NCBI GenBank assembly: GCA_036170495.1
Contig: JAVHPH010000252.1
DNA from: Azonexus sp.
Lineage (GTDB): Bacteria > Pseudomonadota > Gammaproteobacteria > Burkholderiales > Rhodocyclaceae
DNA length: 43,386 nt
Direction: 5' to 3' (one strand)
Part shown: positions 4,631-19,482 of the stretch, one piece after another
Numbering within the stretch: position 1 is the stretch's first letter
Layout of the letters: each line of letters opens with the position of its first letter
The notes under the pieces: model-generated
Told to the model about the DNA's origin: nothing
Database searches by the model: none
The model's input: only the letters and a program-made list of their open reading frames with translations
Made by a program: the position numbers and the translations under genes

Positions 4631-4667
4631 GCCACGGTCAACCGGAAAAAATGGCCAATATTAAAAT
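4631..4667 (+). repeat. Dispersed 37-bp motif copy, intergenic, after the mgtE stop
   Basis: gccacggtcaaccggaaaaaatggccaatattaaaat. Confidence 0.9.
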
Positions 4668-6222: not shown

Positions 6223-6918
6223 TCACGGCACTTCGGCGCCCGGCATACGGGCCAGAATAATCGCCGTCTTGCGCCCCAATCCGGGGGCATTGCGATTGCG
6301 GTCGTAGTAGCGCGGATTCGGTACCATGCCGGCCAGCCGCGCCGCCTGTTCCGGCCCGAGCTGGGCGGCGCTGGTGTTGTAGTAATGGCGGGCCGCCGCC
6401 TCGGCACCAAAAACACCGTTGCCCCATTCGATCACGTTGAGATAAACCTCGAGAATCCGCCGCTTGCTCCACAGGTTTTCCAGCATCAACGTAATGATCG
6501 CCTCTTCGGCCTTGCGGAAATACGACTTGGTCGGCGTCAGGAACAGGTTTTTAGCCAGTTGCTGGCTGATGGTCGAGCCGCCGGCCGCGAAACGCCCTCG
6601 CTTCTGGTTCTTTTCGAGCGCCTTCTGCATGCCTTCCCAGTCGAAGCCTTCATGGTCGACGAACTTGGCATCCTCGGCGGAGATGATGGCGCGCTTGAGA
6701 TGAATTGAAATCCGCGCGTAGGGCACCCATTGCTTTTTAAGTTGGGCATCGGGCAGCTTCTGGTGCAATTCGGTCAGACGAATTTCCATGAAACGGGTTT
6801 CGCCGGGGTTCATCCACCCCCAAAGCAACACCCAGCCAAGGAGCCACAACTGCCAGATCAGGAACAATCCGAGCATGCCCAGCACAGCCCATTTCAACCA
6901 ACGGCCAACGATTTTCAT
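6223..6918 (-). CDS. mtgA: Monofunctional peptidoglycan transglycosylase
   Basis: [42 protein letters not shown]. Confidence 0.95.
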
Positions 6919-7766
6919 GCGGCCAGTTTGGCTCTCAGGTCGGCCAACACCTGAGCGGTGGCCGGGCGCACGCCGCGCCAGACGAAAAAAGCTTCAGCTG
7001 CCTGCTCGACCAGCATGCCGAGCCCATCCGCGCGCATTGCTGCACCCTGCACGCGGGCCAGTGCCAGAAAAGGCGTTTCGCCTTGGCCGTACATCATGTC
7101 GTAGGCCAGACTGCCCGGCGCAAAGATTCCCGGCGGCAAGGGCAGGCTTTCACCGGAAAGGCTGGCTGAAGTGGCGTTGATAATCAGATCGAAGCTGTTG
7201 TCGGCGGTTTTTGCGAAATTTCCCCCGTTGACCGCGCCCCGCAGGAACTCCCCTTGGGGGATAGCCCTGTCCGAAAACGCCTTTGCCAGCAAAACGGCCT
7301 TGTCAGCGCTGCGATTGGCGATAAACAGCGACGCCGGCTGTTCAGCCAGCAGCGGCGCGATAACCCCGCGCGAGGCACCGCCGGCGCCGAGCAGAAGAAT
7401 GCGCTTGCCGGCCAGCGAAAAACCGAGGTTGTGCGTCATGTCGCGAACCAACCCGGCGCCATCGGTGTTGTCGCCGAAGATTTCGGCACCGTTGAAGGCC
7501 AGGGTATTGACCGCCCCGGCTCGCGCCGCGCGCTCGGACAGACGCGTCGCCAGGCGAAACGCCTCCTCCTTGAACGGCACGGTGACATTCGCCCCTTTGC
7601 CCCCCGCCGCTACGAATTCGGAAATCGCTTGTTTAAAGCCGTCGACCGCCGCAAGACGCGCTTCGTAGATCACATCCTGCCCACTCGCAGCGGCGAAGGC
7701 CGCATGAATGGCCGGCGATTTCGAATGGGCAATCGGATTGCCAAAGACGCAGTAAAGATCACTCAT
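6915..7766 (-). CDS. aroE: Shikimate dehydrogenase, with an apparent 9-aa in-frame insertion
   Basis: [39 protein letters not shown]. Confidence 0.95.
7207..7265 (-). repeat. Dispersed motif copy interrupted by a 27-bp hairpin insert (7235-7261), inside aroE
   Basis: gtttttgcgaaatttcccccgttgaccg[cgccccgcaggaactccccttggggga]tagc. Confidence 0.75.
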
Positions 7767-8659
7767 TTGCTGGCCGTATTGAGGGCATCACCCTGCGTGA
7801 AATACCAGGTCCGGGCAAAGGAAAGCACGGTCGCCCCACCCAATGCCTGCTGTGGAATGGCACCGAAGGGCGCCGACATCCGGAGGATACGCAGCGCCGC
7901 CTGATCAAGAATCTTGTGCCCGGACGAGCGCGAGATCTCGGCGCTGTACAGGCTGCCGTCCTCGGCGCGCAATTCAACGAAAATCACCACCGCGCCGTAG
8001 AGCTTGCCGCGCGCTTCTGGCGGATAGTTCAGCGTGCCGATGCGCTCGATTTTCTGTTTCCAGGCATCGAGATAGGCAGCCAGACCATATTCTTCAGTCC
8101 GTGCGCCAACAAATTTCTTGCGCGGCCGTTTGCTGTACTCGTCGGCCGTCTTGCTGATCTCGCCCTCGAGACGGGCCATCGCCCGCGCCGACTCGGCGAG
8201 GTCCAAGCCACTGACCACGGGCACGACCGGCGATGGCTGCTCGGTGGCCGTATTTGCCGCCGCGACGTTGCGCAGACTCTTCGCCTGCGCCAGCAGCCTT
8301 TGCTGGGCTGTTTCGAGTTCCTGGACGCGACGCTGCATCTGCTGAATGGCGTCGCCGTCGTTCTTTTGCGGCGAGGGCGGCAAGGGCGTCTTGGCCCGCC
8401 GGTTTTCATCAGTATTACCGCCGCCATCGAGATTGGCCTGAGCTAGCGCCTGAGCATCCGTCGGCTTGCGTGCGGATTTGGCGTTGACCAGGATGATGTC
8501 CATGGCCTTTTCACGAAAGGCCTGAGAAGCCTCCGGAAACTGGAAATTCAGGAACAGCAACAAGCCATGAAAAAGGACGGAGATGCCCAGTGCGAGCCAC
8601 AAGCGGCGATCTTGCTTCGCCGCGCGGGCTGCGCGCAGGGACGGTCTCTTCTTTTTCAC
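7763..8659 (-). CDS. TonB-family protein (N-terminal anchor, TonB_C domain)
   Basis: TM helix with SxxxH; C-terminal [11 protein letters not shown]...[11 protein letters not shown]. Confidence 0.85.
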
Positions 8660-10557
8660 TGCTCCTCACTCTCCGTGGCGTCGGCCAAATTGTTCTCGCC
8701 AAGCAGGCTCACGAAGCGGCAGCTAACTTCCGGCGCCAGCAGATCAAGACTCTCAATGGCCAGACGCACACGCTGGCCGGCCACCAGATCGGCCGGCAAG
8801 GATGGCACGCGGAGCAATAAGGGCAAATGGTCGAGCTTGACGCTCTGCTCACGGCGCACAGTCGCCTCGATTTCAGTCAACCCACGTTGCAGAATCCAGC
8901 GCAGACACCAATAACGCTCCATCTGGCGCTGAAAATCGGCATAAGCGGCGTATGTCAGCTCAAAATCGCGCATGGCGCCGAACAACTCGGCCGATTTCTG
9001 GGCAAAAGCCGGCGTTTCGCCCTTCAAACAGGCAATCAACTGCCATTGGTTGACCATATCGCAGTAACGACGCAGCGGCGAGGTCATCCAGGCGTATTGC
9101 GGCACGCCGAGACCTTCGTGCGGCAGCGGCGAGGTCGTCATGCGCACCTTGCCCTGCGTCTGCGCCCGGTACAGGCAGGCGACGTTCTTCTCGGCGAGCA
9201 GGCCGCCCCAGGTCGAGTTGGCGACGATCATGAGCTCGGCGACCAGCTTGTCGAGCGGACTGCCGCGCTTGCGTTCGGAAATTTCGACGGTGCAGCTATC
9301 CGGATCGGCCAGGTCGCCGCCGATTTCAAAGTTGTAGTCGTTGATGCCCTGCATCGCCGACGGCTTGCCCCGGCGGCCTTCGCAGGCGTTGGCGAAATGC
9401 CAGAGGTGCACCAGTTCGTCCTTGAACGGCTGGTCGGGCAGCGGGCCGTTGATCGTTTCGGCGTTGAACCACGGCTCGATTTCGTGGTGGCGCAGGTTGG
9501 CGGCGATGTGCACCATTTCCAGCCGCGACTCGTGGCTCAGTATTTCCAGCGAGTCATTGACCGTCAGGTAGAGCGAGACGGCCGGGCAATCGACGCCTCC
9601 GGCCAGCGTGTAGTTCTGGACCACGGCATCGGGCAGCATGGTGATCTTGTTGCCCGGCATGTAGACCGTGGACAGCCGGGCGCGGGCGATGCCGTCGAGC
9701 GGCGAGCCGTGCGCGATGGCCAGACCCGGCGCGGCAATGTGGATGCCGATGCGCGAACCGATGCCGGGCAGCCGGACGACCGACAGCGCGTCGTCGATTT
9801 CGGTGGTGTTGGCGTCGTCGATCGAGAAAGCGCGGACGTCGGCCTTCGGCAGATCGCGCGGCAACTTCGGCGCCTCAAGCAGCGGAAAGGCGACGCCTTT
9901 CGGGAACTGTTCGTGCAGGAAACGCCGGTAATGCAGGAAGTAGGGCGACTTGATGGCGCCGCACTTGAAGAGCATTTGCGCCGCCGTCAGGCCGGTTTCG
10001 GCACAGGCCGTCTCGAAGGCTTTGGTTTCCGGTTTGTTGCGGTCCGGGGCGTAAAGCAGGGCATCGGTCAGCGCGCCGATTTCCGGCGGCAGGCGGAATT
10101 CCTTCAGCTCGCCGATCCAGCCTTCCATCGCGAGCGCTTGCTGACGCTTTTTTTCAAGACTGGCCAGAGCAGCTGCGAGAATGTCGGCAGGCGCCTTGCG
10201 GAAGCGACCCTTGCCTTTGCGGTGGAAATAGACGGGCGCGGCGTGCACGGCAAGCAGCACCGCCGTCGCTTCGAGCGGGCTGGGCTCGTGTCCGTAGTAA
10301 TCACGGGCAAAATCAAGAAACGAAAATTCGCCATCGTTGACGCACTCCCAGAGGAATTCTGCTTCGATCTCTTCGGCCAGCGGTGTCGCCTGATCGAGCA
10401 AGGCAGCCGCCGACGGTTTCTCGAAACGCAGCAACACCGTTGCGGCCTTGATCTTGCTGCGCTTGCCGCTCGGCATTTCGACCTGCAACGAGCTGTCGTT
10501 GTCGGCCATGATGCTGCCGGCCTTGAAGCCGCCATCTTCTTCAAACAATACATTCAT
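8656..10557 (-). CDS. RNase II/RNB-domain exoribonuclease
   Basis: FSIDD..TTEIDDALS, IHIAAP and TSPLRRY; start taken as MNVLFEE. Confidence 0.9.
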   Translation of the reverse strand: MNVLFEEDGGFKAGSIMADNDSSLQVEMPSGKRSKIKAATVLLRFEKPSAAALLDQATPLAEEIEAEFLWECVNDGEFSFLDFARDYYGHEPSPLEATAVLLAVHAAPVYFHRKGKGRFRKAPADILAAALASLEKKRQQALAMEGWIGELKEFRLPPEIGALTDALLYAPDRNKPETKAFETACAETGLTAAQMLFKCGAIKSPYFLHYRRFLHEQFPKGVAFPLLEAPKLPRDLPKADVRAFSIDDANTTEIDDALSVVRLPGIGSRIGIHIAAPGLAIAHGSPLDGIARARLSTVYMPGNKITMLPDAVVQNYTLAGGVDCPAVSLYLTVNDSLEILSHESRLEMVHIAANLRHHEIEPWFNAETINGPLPDQPFKDELVHLWHFANACEGRRGKPSAMQGINDYNFEIGGDLADPDSCTVEISERKRGSPLDKLVAELMIVANSTWGGLLAEKNVACLYRAQTQGKVRMTTSPLPHEGLGVPQYAWMTSPLRRYCDMVNQWQLIACLKGETPAFAQKSAELFGAMRDFELTYAAYADFQRQMERYWCLRWILQRGLTEIEATVRREQSVKLDHLPLLLRVPSLPADLVAGQRVRLAIESLDLLAPEVSCRFVSLLGENNLADATESEEQ

Positions 10558-10564
10558 CGACGGA

Positions 10565-11134
10565 TTATAGCCCAGCGTATTCAATGATTTGCGGCACGAA
10601 GCCGGGAAATTGCGTGAAGCCGTGGTCACCGCCCGGCAACACCGTTTGCCGGCAGCCGGCGTAGAAATCCACGGCCTGCCGGTAATCCAGCACCTCGTCG
10701 CCGGTTTCGGCGAGCAGCCAGTAGCGCGCCGGCGTCGGCTGGCGCACTTGCGCTTTGAGCTGCGCGGCATGCGCTTCGGTGAAGGTGAAACGCTCGCCGG
10801 TATGGAAATTGGCGTGATCGCCGACGAAATTGGCCAGATTTATCCGGTCGACCGTAGCGGGATTGATCAGAACCGCGTTCAAGCCGTGCTTTTCCGCCAG
10901 ATGGTTGGCGTAATGCCCGCCGAGCGAACTGCCGATCAAGGTGACCGGCCCGCCGGCCTGTTCGATCAGGCGGCTGACACTGGCCACTGCTTCATCGGGC
11001 ACCGGCGACAGTTGCGGGCAGACAAACTGCGCGGCCAGCCCGCGCCGCGCCATCTCCTCGGCCAGCAACTTTGATTTCCACGAGGCCGGCGAGGAGCAGA
11101 AGCCGTGCAGGTAAAGGATCAGCCCGCGGTCCAT
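10565..11134 (-). CDS. YqiA/UPF0227 family alpha/beta-hydrolase (esterase)
   Basis: LYLHGF.SSP.S.K, GSSLGG nucleophile motif, GDEVLDY, GGDHGF. Confidence 0.9.
10826..10858 (-). repeat. Dispersed motif copy, inside the esterase gene
   Basis: gaaattggccagatttatccggtcgaccgtagc; encodes [10 protein letters not shown]. Confidence 0.8.
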
Positions 11135-11943
11135 TGCACCCAGCCGAAGTGGGCGGTCAGCAGGACGACAATGCCGAAGACGATGCGATACCACGCGAAG
11201 GGCGTGAAATCGTGGCTGGAAATGAAACGCAGCAGCCAGCGCACGCACAGAAAGGCCGAAATGAAAGCGGAAACGAAGCCGACGGCCCACATGCCAATAT
11301 CGTCGGCGTTGAGCAGGGCGCGTTCCTTGTAGAGCTGATAGACGGTGGCCGCGCCGAGCGTCGGGATGGCGAGGAAGAAGGAAAACTCGGTCGCCGCCTT
11401 GCGCGACAAGCCAAAAAGCAAGCCGCCGATGATTGTCGAGCCGGACCGCGAGGTGCCGGGAATCAGCGCCACGGCCTGGGCGAAGCCCATTTTCAGGGCG
11501 TCGAGCAGGGTCATTTCCTCGACCGTCTGGACGCGGATGGTGTGCTCGCGCTTCTCCGCCCACAGAATGACGAAGGCGCCGACAATGAAGCTGGTGGCCA
11601 CGGCAATCGGGTTGAACAGGTGGGCCTTGATCGCCTTGCCGAAGGTCAGCCCGAGGATGGCTAGCGGCAGGAAGGCGACGAACAGGTTGAGGATGAATTT
11701 TTGCGCCGCCTTGTCGCTGAAGGCGCCGCGCGCCACGACGAGCAGCCGCTCGCGATACTCCCAGACGACGGCCAGAATGGCGCCGGACTGGATGACAATC
11801 TCGAACAACTTGCCGCGATCATCGTTGAAATCCAGCAGATCGCCGGCCAGGATCAGGTGGCCGGTCGAGGAAATCGGCAGGAATTCGGTCAGCCCTTCGA
11901 CGATGCCGAGAATGAGGGCTTTAAGGAGAAGAATCGGGTCCAT
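11119..11943 (-). CDS. uppP: Undecaprenyl-diphosphate phosphatase
   Basis: [17 protein letters not shown] and [10 protein letters not shown]. Confidence 0.97.
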
Positions 11944-11988
11944 GGCGTGCAGCCTGCGCTTTTAGCAAGTTGGGGAGGCCGCATTCTA

Positions 11989-12228
11989 CTATCCCGGCTG
12001 TGTCAGAACTTCGAGTTCGGCTAGCCAGTTGAGCGCATGCTCGCGGGATAAGCCGCACATCTCGACCGACGGTTGCAGGCCAGCGCAGCAATCCGGCCGC
12101 TCCGGGCTAGCGAAAATCAGGCAACGAAATTCGCCATCGAGATGCCGGCAGGGCACCCCCGCCGCCTTGTTCAGCGAACTGATCGACGGCGCAATGCAAC
12201 AGGCGCCGCAATTGGGGCGGCAGGCCAT
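11989..12228 (-). CDS. YkgJ-family cysteine-cluster protein (alternative start 12264)
   Basis: [16 protein letters not shown]...C.HL...C.IF..PERP..C. Confidence 0.85.
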
Positions 12229-12310
12229 CGGTAACGGAACGGAGGAGCTGGGCTTTTCGGACATGCCCGATTGTCGCAGATTCGGCTTTTCCGTTTGGCG
12301 CCGATGACTT

Positions 12311-12373
12311 CCACACCCCAAGAGTGCTTCCTTCGGGGCGCGGTCAACCGGAAAAATCAGCAAAAAATGAAAT
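12311..12373 (+). repeat. Dispersed motif copy interrupted by a 27-bp hairpin insert (12314-12340), intergenic
   Basis: cca[caccccaagagtgcttccttcggggcg]cggtcaaccggaaaaatcagcaaaaaatgaaat. Confidence 0.85.
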
Positions 12374-12409
12374 GGGGGCCATCGGCCCCCAAGTGTCAAA
12401 AAAACCGAA

Positions 12410-12949
12410 TTAACGACCGGCCGGTTTGGCAGTATCAGCCGCCGCGCCGCGCGGACCATCGCCACGGCCGCGCGGCCCGCGCTCGGTCGGCTTCATTTCA
12501 GCCAGTTGCTTGCGTTGCTCCGGCGTCAGCACCTCGAATACCTGACGATCGGCCTTGGCCCGCGCCAGGGTCATTTCCGACATCGCCTTCGCTGCCTCGT
12601 CGGCCAGACCGCGCGCCTTGGCTTCGCTGTAATCCGGCGCCGAAGTCAGCGCCCGCAGATCAGTCTCAGCCTTGCGCAGGGCCTTGGCCTTGTCGCGCAT
12701 TACCGGCGCCTGGGCATGCATGATCTCGAAAACCTTGTCCTGCTGCGCCTCGGTCAGATTCAAGGTACGCAGATGCGGCGGCATCATGTTGCCACCCATC
12801 ATGTGGTGGCCCAACCCGCCAAGCGCCTCCATTCCACAGCCGTCATGACTGCCGTGACCGCCAAAGGCCGCGGCAGAAAGCGGAATGGCCAAAGCCACGC
12901 TGGCGGCAATCAGGAAACGTTTGATATTGGTGTTGGGGGTAGTTTTCAT
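12410..12949 (-). CDS. Spy/CpxP-family periplasmic chaperone, copy 1
   Basis: Signal peptide and two LTxxQ motifs (LNLTEAQ, VLTPEQR). Confidence 0.88.
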
Positions 12950-13043
12950 CTCTTCATCCTCTTGTTCAAATTAGCCGGCCCAAGCGGGCCTGGCGACAGG
13001 ACGAATACTCCCCCGAGAGCCTGTAAAGGTGGGTGACAGGGCT

Positions 13044-13058
13044 GTAAATGAAAGTAAA
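13044..13058. promoter_or_regulatory. CpxR-type direct-repeat box upstream of Spy/CpxP copy 1
   Basis: GTAAA-tgaaa-GTAAA matches the GTAAA-N5-GTAAA consensus. Confidence 0.75.
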
Positions 13059-13085
13059 TGGCGTAAGCGGATGAAAAGCGCGCTT

Positions 13086-13122
13086 GCTACGGTCAACCGG
13101 AAAAAACGGCCAAAATTGAAAT
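13086..13122 (+). repeat. Dispersed motif copy, 3 bp after the permease stop
   Basis: gctacggtcaaccggaaaaaacggccaaaattgaaat. Confidence 0.92.
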
Positions 13123-15044: not shown

Positions 15045-15081
15045 ATTTCGATTTTGGCCATTTTTTCGGGTTGACCGTAGC
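15045..15081 (-). repeat. Dispersed motif copy, in an intra-operon gap
   Basis: atttcgattttggccattttttcgggttgaccgtagc. Confidence 0.92.
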
Positions 15082-15084
15082 AAC

Positions 15085-16371
15085 TCACTTTTTCGCCGCC
15101 TGATAGTCGGAAATCACCGCCGCATCCACCGGCAAATCGCCGCCCAGCACTTCGGTCTGGCGCCCGTTGCTGACGCCGGTTTTCAGCGCCACTGCCTGCG
15201 GCTGGCTATCGACCAGCACCCAGACCAGCCCTTCACCGCTGCCCGTGGCTGCCGCCGGGCGATTCTTCGGTGCCTCCGGCGGCGGCCCGGGCATCAGGCG
15301 GGCGACCAAGCCGCGCTCCTTCGCCGCCGCGCCCTCTCCCGGCGGCGTGAAACGCAACGCCGCGTTGGGCACCAACAGCACCTTTTCACGGCTCGCCGTG
15401 ACGATGGTAGCCGTCGCCGTCATCCCCGGGCGCAGCGCGAGATCATCGTTATTGACCCGCAGGATGGTCTTGTACGTCACCACGTTATCGGTCGTCGTCG
15501 AACCCAGCCCGACACGCTGAATGCTCGCCGGAAACTTGCGCCCCGGCCAGGCCGACACGGTGAAACTCGCCGTCTGGCCGGTTTTGACATTGCCGACATC
15601 GGCTTCATCGACCTTGACCTGCAACTCCATCTTGGCCAGATCCTCGGCCAGCACGAAAAGCACCGGCGTCGTCATCGCTGCCACCACGGTCTGGCCGGGC
15701 TCCACCTTGCGGGTCAGCACGACGCCATCGACCGGCGAACGGATGGTCGCCTTGCCGAGATTGGTTTCATCCGTTTTCGCCGTCGCCCGCGCCTGCACCA
15801 CGTCGGCCCGGGCGCTGGCCAGGCTGGCGATGGCCCGTTGCCGCGCCGCATCGGCCGTCTCCAGCTCGGTCTTGGCCGGCACCTTGCCGCCGGAAAGTTC
15901 GGCGACCTGCCGCATGCGATTCAGCGACGCCGTCGTTTCGGCCACTGTCGCCTGCGCCAGCGCCACCGAAGCCTCGGCCGCCGCCACCGCCGCCTGCGAT
16001 TTGGAAACAGCGTCCTTCAATTTGGCGGTATCGAGCTGGGCCAGCAACTGGCCTTTCTTGACCACATCGTTTTCCTGCACCAGCACGTTGGATAGAGTGC
16101 CGGAAAGCTCGGAACCGACATCGACCGACTTGGTCGGCTGCAAGGTGCCGCTGGCCGAAGCGGTAACCAGCAGATTCCCGAAAACCACCTCCTCGGTCGC
16201 GAACTGCCCGGCCGGCTGACCATTGCCGCCGGACACAACCAGCCACAGCACAGCCACGACGGCAGTGCCGCCGACTATCAGCCGCCGCCATCGCCGGCCG
16301 CTATCCTCGTGCTTGTTCTGGCTGAGCAGCGCAACGAGCGCCTCTGACGAGGTATCCGCACTATTTGTCAT
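15085..16371 (-). CDS. MacA-like periplasmic adaptor (membrane fusion protein)
   Basis: ASGTLQP..VDVGSELSG, VKKGQLLAQLD, IRSPVDGVVL, VDEADVG. Confidence 0.92.
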   Translation of the reverse strand: MTNSADTSSEALVALLSQNKHEDSGRRWRRLIVGGTAVVAVLWLVVSGGNGQPAGQFATEEVVFGNLLVTASASGTLQPTKSVDVGSELSGTLSNVLVQENDVVKKGQLLAQLDTAKLKDAVSKSQAAVAAAEASVALAQATVAETTASLNRMRQVAELSGGKVPAKTELETADAARQRAIASLASARADVVQARATAKTDETNLGKATIRSPVDGVVLTRKVEPGQTVVAAMTTPVLFVLAEDLAKMELQVKVDEADVGNVKTGQTASFTVSAWPGRKFPASIQRVGLGSTTTDNVVTYKTILRVNNDDLALRPGMTATATIVTASREKVLLVPNAALRFTPPGEGAAAKERGLVARLMPGPPPEAPKNRPAAATGSGEGLVWVLVDSQPQAVALKTGVSNGRQTEVLGGDLPVDAAVISDYQAAKK

Positions 16372-18010: not shown

Positions 18011-18502
18011 TTAATCGCCGGGAGGCGGACGGCGCTCACCACCGCGCCCGTCCATAGGCGCCTTGCCGGCGGCCTTCAGCTTGGCCAGTTGGCTGCGCTG
18101 CTCGACAGTCAGCACCTCATAAATCTGGCGCTCGGCCTTGGCCCGGGCCAGCGACAGGTCAGCCATCGCCCTGGCCGCACCATCAGACAACGCGCGCGCC
18201 TTCGGCTCGGTATATTCAGTCGACCACACCAGCTTACGCAGCGACTCCTCGGCATTACGCGCCGCCTTCACTTTCTCGCGCTTAGCCGGCGCCTGCCCGT
18301 GCATGATCTCGAAAACCCGGTCGCGCTGCGCCTCACTCAAATCCAACTGGCGCAAATACGGCGGCATCTTTTCCGATTCCGTAGCCGGCCCGACACCGCA
18401 ACGATCACCCCGCTGACCAACCCCCAGGGCAGCCAACGGCAGCACCAGCGAAATCGCAGCGGCAATCAGAAGCCGCTTCAAACTCAATTTTGGAAAATTC
18501 AC
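18011..18502 (-). CDS. Spy/CpxP-family periplasmic chaperone, copy 2
   Basis: Paralogous to 12410-12949 (MPP.LR.L.L.EAQ.D.VFEIMH.QAP, VLT.EQR); GTG start at 18502 assumed. Confidence 0.85.
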   Translation of the reverse strand: MNFPKLSLKRLLIAAAISLVLPLAALGVGQRGDRCGVGPATESEKMPPYLRQLDLSEAQRDRVFEIMHGQAPAKREKVKAARNAEESLRKLVWSTEYTEPKARALSDGAARAMADLSLARAKAERQIYEVLTVEQRSQLAKLKAAGKAPMDGRGGERRPPPGD

Positions 18503-18590
18503 ATTCAGCCCTTTGACTTCAAGTTTCGAGGGGTACCCAACGACAGGACGAATACTCCCCCGCGGCACGGTTAAGGCGGGTTAGCGGGCT

Positions 18591-18605
18591 GTAAATGAAC
18601 GTAAA
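18591..18605. promoter_or_regulatory. CpxR-type direct-repeat box upstream of Spy/CpxP copy 2
   Basis: GTAAA-tgaac-GTAAA. Confidence 0.75.
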
Positions 18606-18687
18606 TGGTGTAACAACATTCGCATACCAACCCGACCGACCCAGGTTAGACTTAACGAGTCGTCATCAACTCTTAGGTACTGGCAGC

Positions 18688-19482
18688 ATGGCATCTAGGC
18701 TCTGGACCCGTGAGCAACTCAAACTTGCTTTCCACCTGTACTGCCAGCTTCCATTCGGCAAGCTACATTCGCGCAACCCGGAAATTATTCAGCTTGCTGA
18801 ACTGATCGGCCGCACGCCATCGGCTGTTGCCATGAAGCTAGTCAATTTCGCCAGCCTTGATCCGGCGATTACCAGCACTGGCCGCAAAGGCCTTGATGGC
18901 GCATCAAACCTCGACCGCGAAATCTGGGCCGACTTTCACGCCGACTGGGAAGGCTTGGCCCTTGAGTGCGAGAAACTCCGCGAGCAATTTGGCCTAATTC
19001 CTACGGTCGACCGTCAGGAAGAGGAAAAAACCGACGACTTCGAGATTCCCTACGATTTCACCGGCGAAACCCGCCGCGTCTTTACCGAGCAACGCATCAA
19101 GCAAAACTTTTTCCGTCGCGCTGTTCTCGCCAGCTACCGAGGCCGTTGCTGCATGTCCGGCCTCTCCGAACCACGCCTGCTGATCGCCAGCCATATCGTG
19201 CCGTGGAGCAAGGACAAAGCGAACCGACTGAACCCAAGCAATGGCCTTTGCCTTTCGGCCATCCATGACCGCGCGTTCGATCAGGGGCTGATTACGTTGA
19301 GCGACGACTGGAAGATCGTTCTTTCGGAAGAACTGCGTAAGCGCGACGAACCCTTCGTTCGATCCGTTCTAACGCCACTGGAAGGCCGCGCCATCGAGAT
19401 TCCGGAGCGCTTTGTTCCAGATGCAGCCTTTCTTCAGCGCCATCGAGCTGAAATCTTTCTGGATAATCGCTCGGCGAGCTAG
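18688..19482 (+). CDS. HNH endonuclease (predicted restriction endonuclease) with an N-terminal HTH-like domain
   Basis: R..Q..FR..VL..Y...CC, ASHIVPW and NGLCLSAIHDRAFDQG; N-terminal LAELIGRTPSAVAMKL. Confidence 0.88.
   Translation: MASRLWTREQLKLAFHLYCQLPFGKLHSRNPEIIQLAELIGRTPSAVAMKLVNFASLDPAITSTGRKGLDGASNLDREIWADFHADWEGLALECEKLREQFGLIPTVDRQEEEKTDDFEIPYDFTGETRRVFTEQRIKQNFFRRAVLASYRGRCCMSGLSEPRLLIASHIVPWSKDKANRLNPSNGLCLSAIHDRAFDQGLITLSDDWKIVLSEELRKRDEPFVRSVLTPLEGRAIEIPERFVPDAAFLQRHRAEIFLDNRSAS
18985..19016 (-). repeat. Degenerate motif copy in the HNH interdomain linker
   Basis: caatttggcctaattcctacggtcgaccgtca. Confidence 0.65.

Follow-up and report, generated by a model that had tools for sequence, protein, structure and literature searches.

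Two 27-nt insertions in copies of a dispersed motif

The window analyzed here is a stretch of 43,386 nucleotides from an Azonexus genome (contig JAVHPH010000252.1 of assembly GCA_036170495.1). The genome, G000 below, is 89% complete with a reported contamination of 4.4%; other G numbers denote further genomes and L numbers loci. Two 27-nt inserts in the window, whose family we call F1, each split the core of a dispersed motif of about 40 bp, made up of this core and phased A/T tracts. The first copy (7235..7261, + strand) lies in aroE, the gene for shikimate dehydrogenase (6915..7766, −), and leaves its frame intact; the left part of the motif, with the tracts and core, occupies 7202..7234 (+), and the core resumes at 7262-7265. 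The second copy (12314..12340, −) is intergenic, between a Spy/CpxP-like gene upstream of it (12410..12949, −; match below the family cut-off) and the next gene. Here the left part of the motif occupies 12341..12373 (−), the core resumes at 12313-12309, and a GC-rich, probably terminator-like hairpin (12374..12390, −) immediately precedes the T-tract. A preliminary description of the window had reported two 27-mers at these positions that split the core at the same base, match at 20/27 positions and share one orientation relative to the motif, and all of this was confirmed; the absence of a target duplication, also claimed there, holds to within one base.

The copy in aroE gives the protein a net gain of nine residues in frame, which appears as a 9-residue gap in the comparison with PDB 4omu. 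Because neither window copy has a stop codon in any of the six frames, F1 can add 9-residue peptides to proteins, and it does so in core enzymes such as AroE.

Both loci were compared with those of relatives. For aroE, 18 loci of the genus were aligned besides that of G000. The core is uninterrupted in four genomes (G001, G003, G004 and G013), another F1 subtype sits at the identical base in G015, an unrelated 27-mer, F2, is found in G018, and F1 and F2 occur together in G016. In the gap at 12.3 kb, G003 has the exact empty allele, and G001 and G007 have a short duplication of the core instead. Since relatives show empty alleles at both places, the window insertions are derived, not ancestral, and removal of the inserts restores the ancestral core. 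The same empty alleles, together with the independently filled ones, bear out the proposal of a minimal mobile unit and make the mobility of F1 near certain. Among sequencing runs, X1 has contigs with both inserts unchanged (it is possibly the source sample and so gives no independent support); X5, X7 and X12 yielded no clean empty allele, which carries no weight either way.

The landing motif

The motif is the source of the commonest real 10- and 12-mers in G000, where it has 848 copies compared with 0 in 839,374 shuffled positions. Its density is lower on low-GC contigs, 277 of 711 cores are intergenic, and no strand bias was found (286:259). The spacing is more even than random, with 33 gaps below 500 bp compared with 86 expected (minimum 66 in 300 trials). 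Because alignments with motif-less orthologues were gap-free in all nine cases, and the same is true of aroE, the motif arises by substitution and not by insertion. Half of the 102 genus genomes (51) have it in abundance, it is enriched directly downstream of genes, and it comes in two dialects with TRG or CAG after the core. The competence gene comEC is present in 98/102 genomes, motif-rich and motif-poor alike, and does not discriminate between them.

By analogy, the motif is likely a DNA-uptake signal of the Pasteurellaceae type, and as such a candidate outside Pasteurellaceae and Neisseriaceae. The signal of Haemophilus and other Pasteurellaceae is described as a short core with two helically phased A/T tracts (PMC3458573). 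The Azonexus motif resembles that description in its core and phased tracts, in its hundreds of copies within genes and spacers, and in the lack of strand bias, the origin without indels and the even spacing (PMC3458573). It differs in its core sequence, in its greater length (about 40 bp), in having two dialects, and in its occurrence in about half of one betaproteobacterial genus. Group II introns were seen to end near some motif copies; this is probably incidental, because they follow terminators.

Abundance and distribution of F1

Counting as F1 every site with at most 4 mismatches to the 23-nt inner part, we detected 18 copies in G000, and none was added at 5 mismatches. Thirteen of them, including one of 28 nt, share a single insertion point in a complete motif and a single orientation, so that the further copies at the motif foreseen in the preliminary description do exist. 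Of the other five, one is displaced downstream by three bases, another occupies a core-like site that has no tracts, and the remaining three lie elsewhere, including one within a GTAG-type palindrome. The share expected at the motif is 2.3% (854/36,982 CCG|YR sites, the bar marking the insertion point) or 6.2% for intergenic sites (327/5,280), and 13/18 is a strong excess even over the intergenic expectation (P-value ~1e-12). According to our own crude gene calls, 11/18 copies are in coding regions. A count of 8/8 coding copies at cores was discarded, since these cores include degenerate ones.

In the genus survey, F1 was present in 69/102 genomes, and a reversed control pattern gave no hit in any of the 102. 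Five of 300 other genomes of the class also carry it. A scan of 4/64 parts of GTDB identified 122 F1 loci, from which about 2,400 are extrapolated overall; these loci belong to Burkholderiales, Lysobacterales, Desulfobulbaceae-type and alphaproteobacterial records and one Gracilibacteria record, with no cyanobacterial record among the 122. Named records in which F1 occupies the present motif are all Azonexus or Dechloromonas, and cultured hosts among the named records include Paraburkholderia, Lysobacter, Sulfurisoma and Pseudoxanthomonas. F1 was also found in six plasmid records and four viral contigs, and in no phage record; three of the plasmid contexts have no gene in common. Rfam gave no match. 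In G029 all four F1 copies are clustered within 3.4 kb (G029:C1:1499094-1502455), in a gene that by eye resembles one for a repeat protein.

Target choice of F1

A wide set of 218 non-redundant copies was gathered with a restrictive pattern that admits only some variants. Within it, a purine|pyrimidine (R|Y) step flanks the insert in 195/218 copies and in 126/146 copies away from the motif; the junction purine itself is ambiguous by one base. Seventy-nine copies were located in selected loci of relatives (4 of them viral), of which 48 are forward at the motif (2 doubtful), 4 reverse and 27 elsewhere. In the motif-poor genome G054, 11/18 copies occupy one bond of a CGTC-type repetitive extragenic palindrome (REP), with the two orientations divided 8 to 3, and in the distant G168 9/10 fetched loci lie in a third repeat. 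F1 was found as well within F2, short tandem repeats, a group II intron and single-copy genes, and as tandems. The intron with F1 has 1862 nt and that without it 1835 nt, a difference of 27 nt. Across genomes the number of F1 copies correlates modestly with the number of motifs (rho 0.34), and 30/51 motif-poor genomes carry F1. Thus F1 is a generalist at purine|pyrimidine steps within abundant repeats and not a motif-specific element. The earlier view of the motif as its landing site is valid for G000 (13/18 copies), but a strict specificity is contradicted by the REP of G054 and the third repeat of G168.

Some further observations concern these targets. The host repeat of G168 (L476-L485, L497-L527) is a degenerate, dispersed unit of about 100 bp, and its filled and empty copies diverge a few bases to the left of the site; the left base is G in 5/12 filled and 0/8 empty copies (P-value = 0.055). 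At L458 (G015:C36) F1 is inside a group II intron that follows a terminator, and this intron is a possible vehicle for its spread. At L453 (G058:C4) F1 lies in a gene that by eye resembles an IS110 transposase, beside another intron.

Structure of F1

The conserved fold of F1 consists of two mini-hairpins, one at positions 5-11 with a GNA loop and one at positions 15-27 with a three-base loop. In an alignment of 40 hand-picked copies it is 98.4% paired with a covariation of 0.41, a value not reached by any of 500 shuffles. A hairpin joining the two ends was rejected as the conserved fold (79.7% paired, covariation 0.07, 201/500 shuffles), so the self-complementary ends noted in the preliminary description are not the working structure. 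In the window, the copy in aroE has a 2-bp stem with a GCA loop at positions 5-11 and a 5-bp stem with a TTG loop at positions 15-27, and the intergenic copy has a GAA loop and belongs to the subtype with CA..TG in the second stem. Taken singly, the aroE copy shows no advantage over shuffled sequences in folding (z 0.26).

Compensatory changes occur in the wide set. Pair 16/26 is C-G in 133 copies and A-T in 72, and pair 6/10 is C-G in 185, T-A in 15, T-G in 13 and C-A in 3. Within the first loop A9 is invariant (218/218), G7 is nearly so (211/218) and position 8 is free. Only GNA loops are reported to yield a very stable DNA mini-hairpin, the RNA counterparts being much weaker (PMC13037366). 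A GNA loop whose middle base varies freely marks a DNA mini-hairpin, and the working form of F1 is therefore probably single-stranded DNA. The tandems, the self-nesting and the compensatory changes imply selection on the 27-mer itself.

Other insertions at the motif

F2 (for example G000:C373:5072-5098, −) is unrelated to F1 in sequence; it numbers about 27 copies in G000, and its insertion point is one base to the left of that of F1. In a set of 129 non-redundant copies, 120 occupy the motif in forward orientation, 6 stand behind another F2, and a reversed copy was never seen, so F2 is an almost strictly motif-specific element. It was found in 9/41 genomes, all within the genus, and forms arrays of up to 4 units. 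We detected neither a stable fold nor covariation in F2. Its 3′ end is a near-complement of the motif core, and a role as internal guide was considered and discarded, the covariation with the target being absent or weak (in a set including about 15 false matches). A changed first base restores the core in 10 copies, which have diverged further than the 18 others (P-value = 0.006), as would follow from ongoing re-selection of the motif. The first unit starts with GTRC in 6/14 F2 tandems and in 0 of about 146 true single copies (P-value = 1e-7); arrays of this type include L266, L419, L420, L421, L424 and G000:C457, and they may represent a subfamily that enters only sites already filled by F2.

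F3 has a length of 18 nt and sits between T-tract and core, with seven near-identical copies in G000 (C140 12204-12221, C392, C485, C78, C128, C188 and C344) and an F1-like loop, C-GTA-G or C-GCA-G. Duplications of the core, as 18-19-bp tandems with a common linker, occur at 11 sites of G000 and also in the G001 and G007 orthologues of 12314-12373.

Mechanism and alternative explanations

On balance, and with moderate confidence, we regard F1 as a gene-less micro-element that inserts repeatedly and without duplication at R|Y steps, travels as folded single-stranded DNA and is likely moved in trans by an enzyme of the HUH (Y1) type; it is likely among the smallest mobile elements. The enzyme class taken alone is close to an even call. 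Such a mechanism would start from a copy of F1 made as folded single-stranded DNA, whose ends would join into a circle or multimer; a G4/C4 hairpin would then present the junction, R|C, in its loop. The joined ends (GA|CG, TG|CG, TA|CG or GG|CG, flanked by G and C runs) would resemble the commonest target steps, and one trans-acting transesterase could cut both junction and target, the junction purine coming from either partner. This enzyme would most likely be of the HUH (Y1) type, nicking and rejoining strands, and in this genus its favored target would be the likely uptake signal, where DNA may be bound, bent or opened. HUH enzymes are described as using single-stranded DNA circles and hairpin recognition (PMC6006769, PMC8266576). 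In the wide set, the identity of the last F1 base correlates with that of the target base to its left (P-value = 1.5e-5).

Several results weigh against this reading. Neither the genus set (P-value = 0.37) nor G000 shows a significant correlation for the last base. No F1 or F2 copy lies within about 1.5 kb of a Y1 gene at any of 30 Y1 loci, the presence of Y1 tracks F1 weakly (34/46 and 35/56 genomes, P-value = 0.016, with related genomes that are not independent), and a REP-associated tyrosine transposase (RAYT) was above the cut-off in none of five F1-rich genomes. IS608-type elements show a replication-strand bias, and F1 has none (7:8 in G000 and 16:18 in five complete genomes, both small numbers); the control, the motif of the FtsK-orienting polar sequences (KOPS), was biased at 291:103, and the motif, F1 and F2 were unbiased. 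The TnpA-REP enzymes are reported to cut at CT or CA (PMC8266576), unlike the R|Y junction of F1. The single REP bond entered in both orientations in G054 would fit a double-strand event equally well. The fold was derived from the same 40 hand-picked copies on which it was tested and the wide set is restricted by its pattern, which introduces some circularity into the test; the fold favored by RNAalifold is a longer hairpin, intact in each of the 40 copies but devoid of compensatory changes, and may be a second conformer; and the G-T wobbles common in stem 2 are compatible with RNA too. The suggestion that an HUH/RAYT or IS110-type enzyme acts here has fared unevenly, in that no such gene was found flanked by F1 or tracking it (IS110 was examined in G000), and these enzymes are candidates.

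The main rival is break capture, which we consider unlikely. Host machinery, through DNA uptake and processing in the case of the motif and through REP nucleases in the case of REPs, would cut the repeats at a fixed bond. A 27-nt oligomer that resists nucleases would then be patched in by general repair or ligation, without any need for a transposase specific to the element, and transformation would spread the filled alleles. The convergence of unrelated inserts on nearly one point (F1, F2 one base to the left, the 18-nt insert upstream and the core duplications) speaks for it, as do the shift of target with the dominant repeat of the host, the lack of enzyme association and strand bias, and the case of the 21-nt SDR5 in HIP1, a cyanobacterial motif that published work has proposed to be subject to directed cutting and to take part in uptake. 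Break capture leaves the exact-length copying out of F1 unexplained, however, and it accounts neither for the persistence of R|Y at targets of unrelated sequence, single-copy genes and an intron among them, nor for an orientation at the motif that is strongly fixed (48 forward and 4 reverse among the 79 copies). An RNA intermediate, transcribed, processed to 27 nt and inserted through reverse splicing or a reverse transcriptase (RT) acting in trans, from a group II intron or otherwise, is less probable still. It would suit the frequent G-T (G-U) wobbles in stem 2, the missing duplication and the F1 copy in a group II intron, but the GNA triloop is a motif of DNA (PMC13037366), the presence of RT genes does not track F1 (38/56 and 31/46 genomes, P-value = 0.79), RVT_1 was not detected in G000 at its 89% completeness, and no Rfam family matches.

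Very improbable is the excision scar of the preliminary description, in which F1 would be the fused ends of a larger insertion sequence (IS), an integrative and conjugative element or an IS110-type element targeting the motif. The precise position without duplication fits it, and IS elements are known to target REPs (PMC3733652); but no longer form bounded by F1 halves was found in G000, the genome in which these were sought. There, 12/12 exact right halves belong to whole copies, and the 53 loose left halves read as chance, save one that is a whole copy. Its one IS200-like Y1 gene and one IS110 gene are not linked to F1 and have no F1 ends, and the tandems, the nesting and the covariation mark the 27-mer as the unit that is copied. 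Ectopic gene conversion, by which a few ancient insertions would have spread among motif copies with the motif as homology, agrees with the same base and orientation at the motif in G000, but is largely refuted: the flanks are locus-specific up to the junction, several F1 subtypes occur at the motif, and F1 also occupies targets without homology to it. The sole IS110 match of G000 (L042, on the 1.8-kb contig G000:C420) carries no F1 by eye and looks foreign to the bin.

Comparison with known elements

The movement of 21-27-nt elements has been an open question since the report of small dispersed repeats (SDRs) in cyanobacteria by Elhai et al. (2008). The SDRs of Nostocaceae are reportedly 21-27 nt long, with compensatory structure and with nesting in other repeats and in themselves; an RNA route, with a group II intron or another RT acting in trans, has reportedly been proposed for them. 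F1 shares with them the compensatory structure and the nesting, in its case within REPs, short tandem repeats, F2 and itself. Its target is by contrast a non-palindromic motif of 40 bp or a REP, the evidence leans to DNA rather than RNA, and unlike the Nostocaceae-confined SDRs it is found in Proteobacteria and others. In the published descriptions, SDR5 is a 21-nt element located precisely between two bases of the hyper-abundant HIP1 (PMC4390886, PMC5861425, PMC13756078, PMC2884548, PMC3116915), and a 2026 paper still calls its function unknown. The likeness to F1 lies in the tiny size (27 nt, with 18 copies in G000), the precise insertion into an abundant motif and the empty alleles. F1 thus works like an SDR in behavior and description, and the parallel with SDR5 in HIP1 suggests that such motifs share a reactive bond.

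F1 also resembles REPs, REPINs and IS200/IS605 elements as described (PMC8266576, PMC3733652, PMC6006769), being a small folded unit that enters without duplication and sometimes in frame in genes. It differs from the REP/RAYT systems of these accounts in lacking a GTAG or CGTC tag and in having two mini-hairpins instead of one stem (PMC8266576, PMC3733652), and further in its position at R|Y rather than C|T, in flanking no transposase gene and in inserting into REPs (PMC8266576). F1 is therefore not a REP as these are defined in the literature cited (PMC3733652, PMC3184786), and F1 strings are absent from four supplement files of PMC3733652. The missing duplication and the subterminal hairpins recall non-autonomous IS200/IS605 derivatives, unlike which F1 has no lagging-strand orientation bias (7:8 and 16:18, small samples). 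With Rickettsia palindromic elements and miniature inverted-repeat transposable elements, in the account of PMC3733652, it has in common in-frame translated insertions, and it differs from them in being far shorter and in having neither terminal inverted repeats nor a target duplication. A search of the literature for the F1 and F2 sequences and the motif gave no match in the searchable part, with subscription papers and most supplements outside reach.

With its roughly 2,400 estimated loci across classes, covarying fold, defined target step and cultured hosts, F1 offers one family in which the question of movement is directly testable. Tentatively, one may go further and see F1 and F2 as members of a general class of micro-transposons that spans phyla. 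Its elements would be single-stranded DNA of 20-40 nt, depend on an enzyme that falls in none of the known transposase families, and enter where DNA opens at transformation signals, namely HIP1 in cyanobacteria and here a third kind of uptake sequence. The bond that uptake cuts or kinks would in that case be revealed by the two neighboring insertion points.

Other features of the window

Fifteen motif sites in the window score at least 22. Among the empty copies, that at 10822..10862 (+) has an F1-filled orthologue in G018, and six relatives are gap-free there without the motif. At the orthologue of the copy at 15045..15085 (+), G007 has an F1 of opposite strand in a secondary site that immediately precedes the core; this site, with an R|R junction, was also seen at L237 and L252. 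Another empty copy lies at 13082..13122 (−), and the further sites start at 4667 (−), 17630 (+), 19036 (−), 20235 (+), 21063 (+), 22539 (+), 27953 (+), 30955 (−), 33061 (+) and 42835 (−).

No mobile-element gene was detected among the 26 window proteins scanned. The open reading frame at 18595-19482 (+), in surroundings that are otherwise of housekeeping type, has a weak C-terminal match to a model of phosphorothioate-DNA restriction endonucleases, with an E-value of 4e-15 that falls short of the cut-off. The Spy-like gene at 12410-12949 has a paralogue at 18011-18568, and the two have in common a 73-nt upstream segment (12994-13066 and 18541-18613) that is 84% identical.

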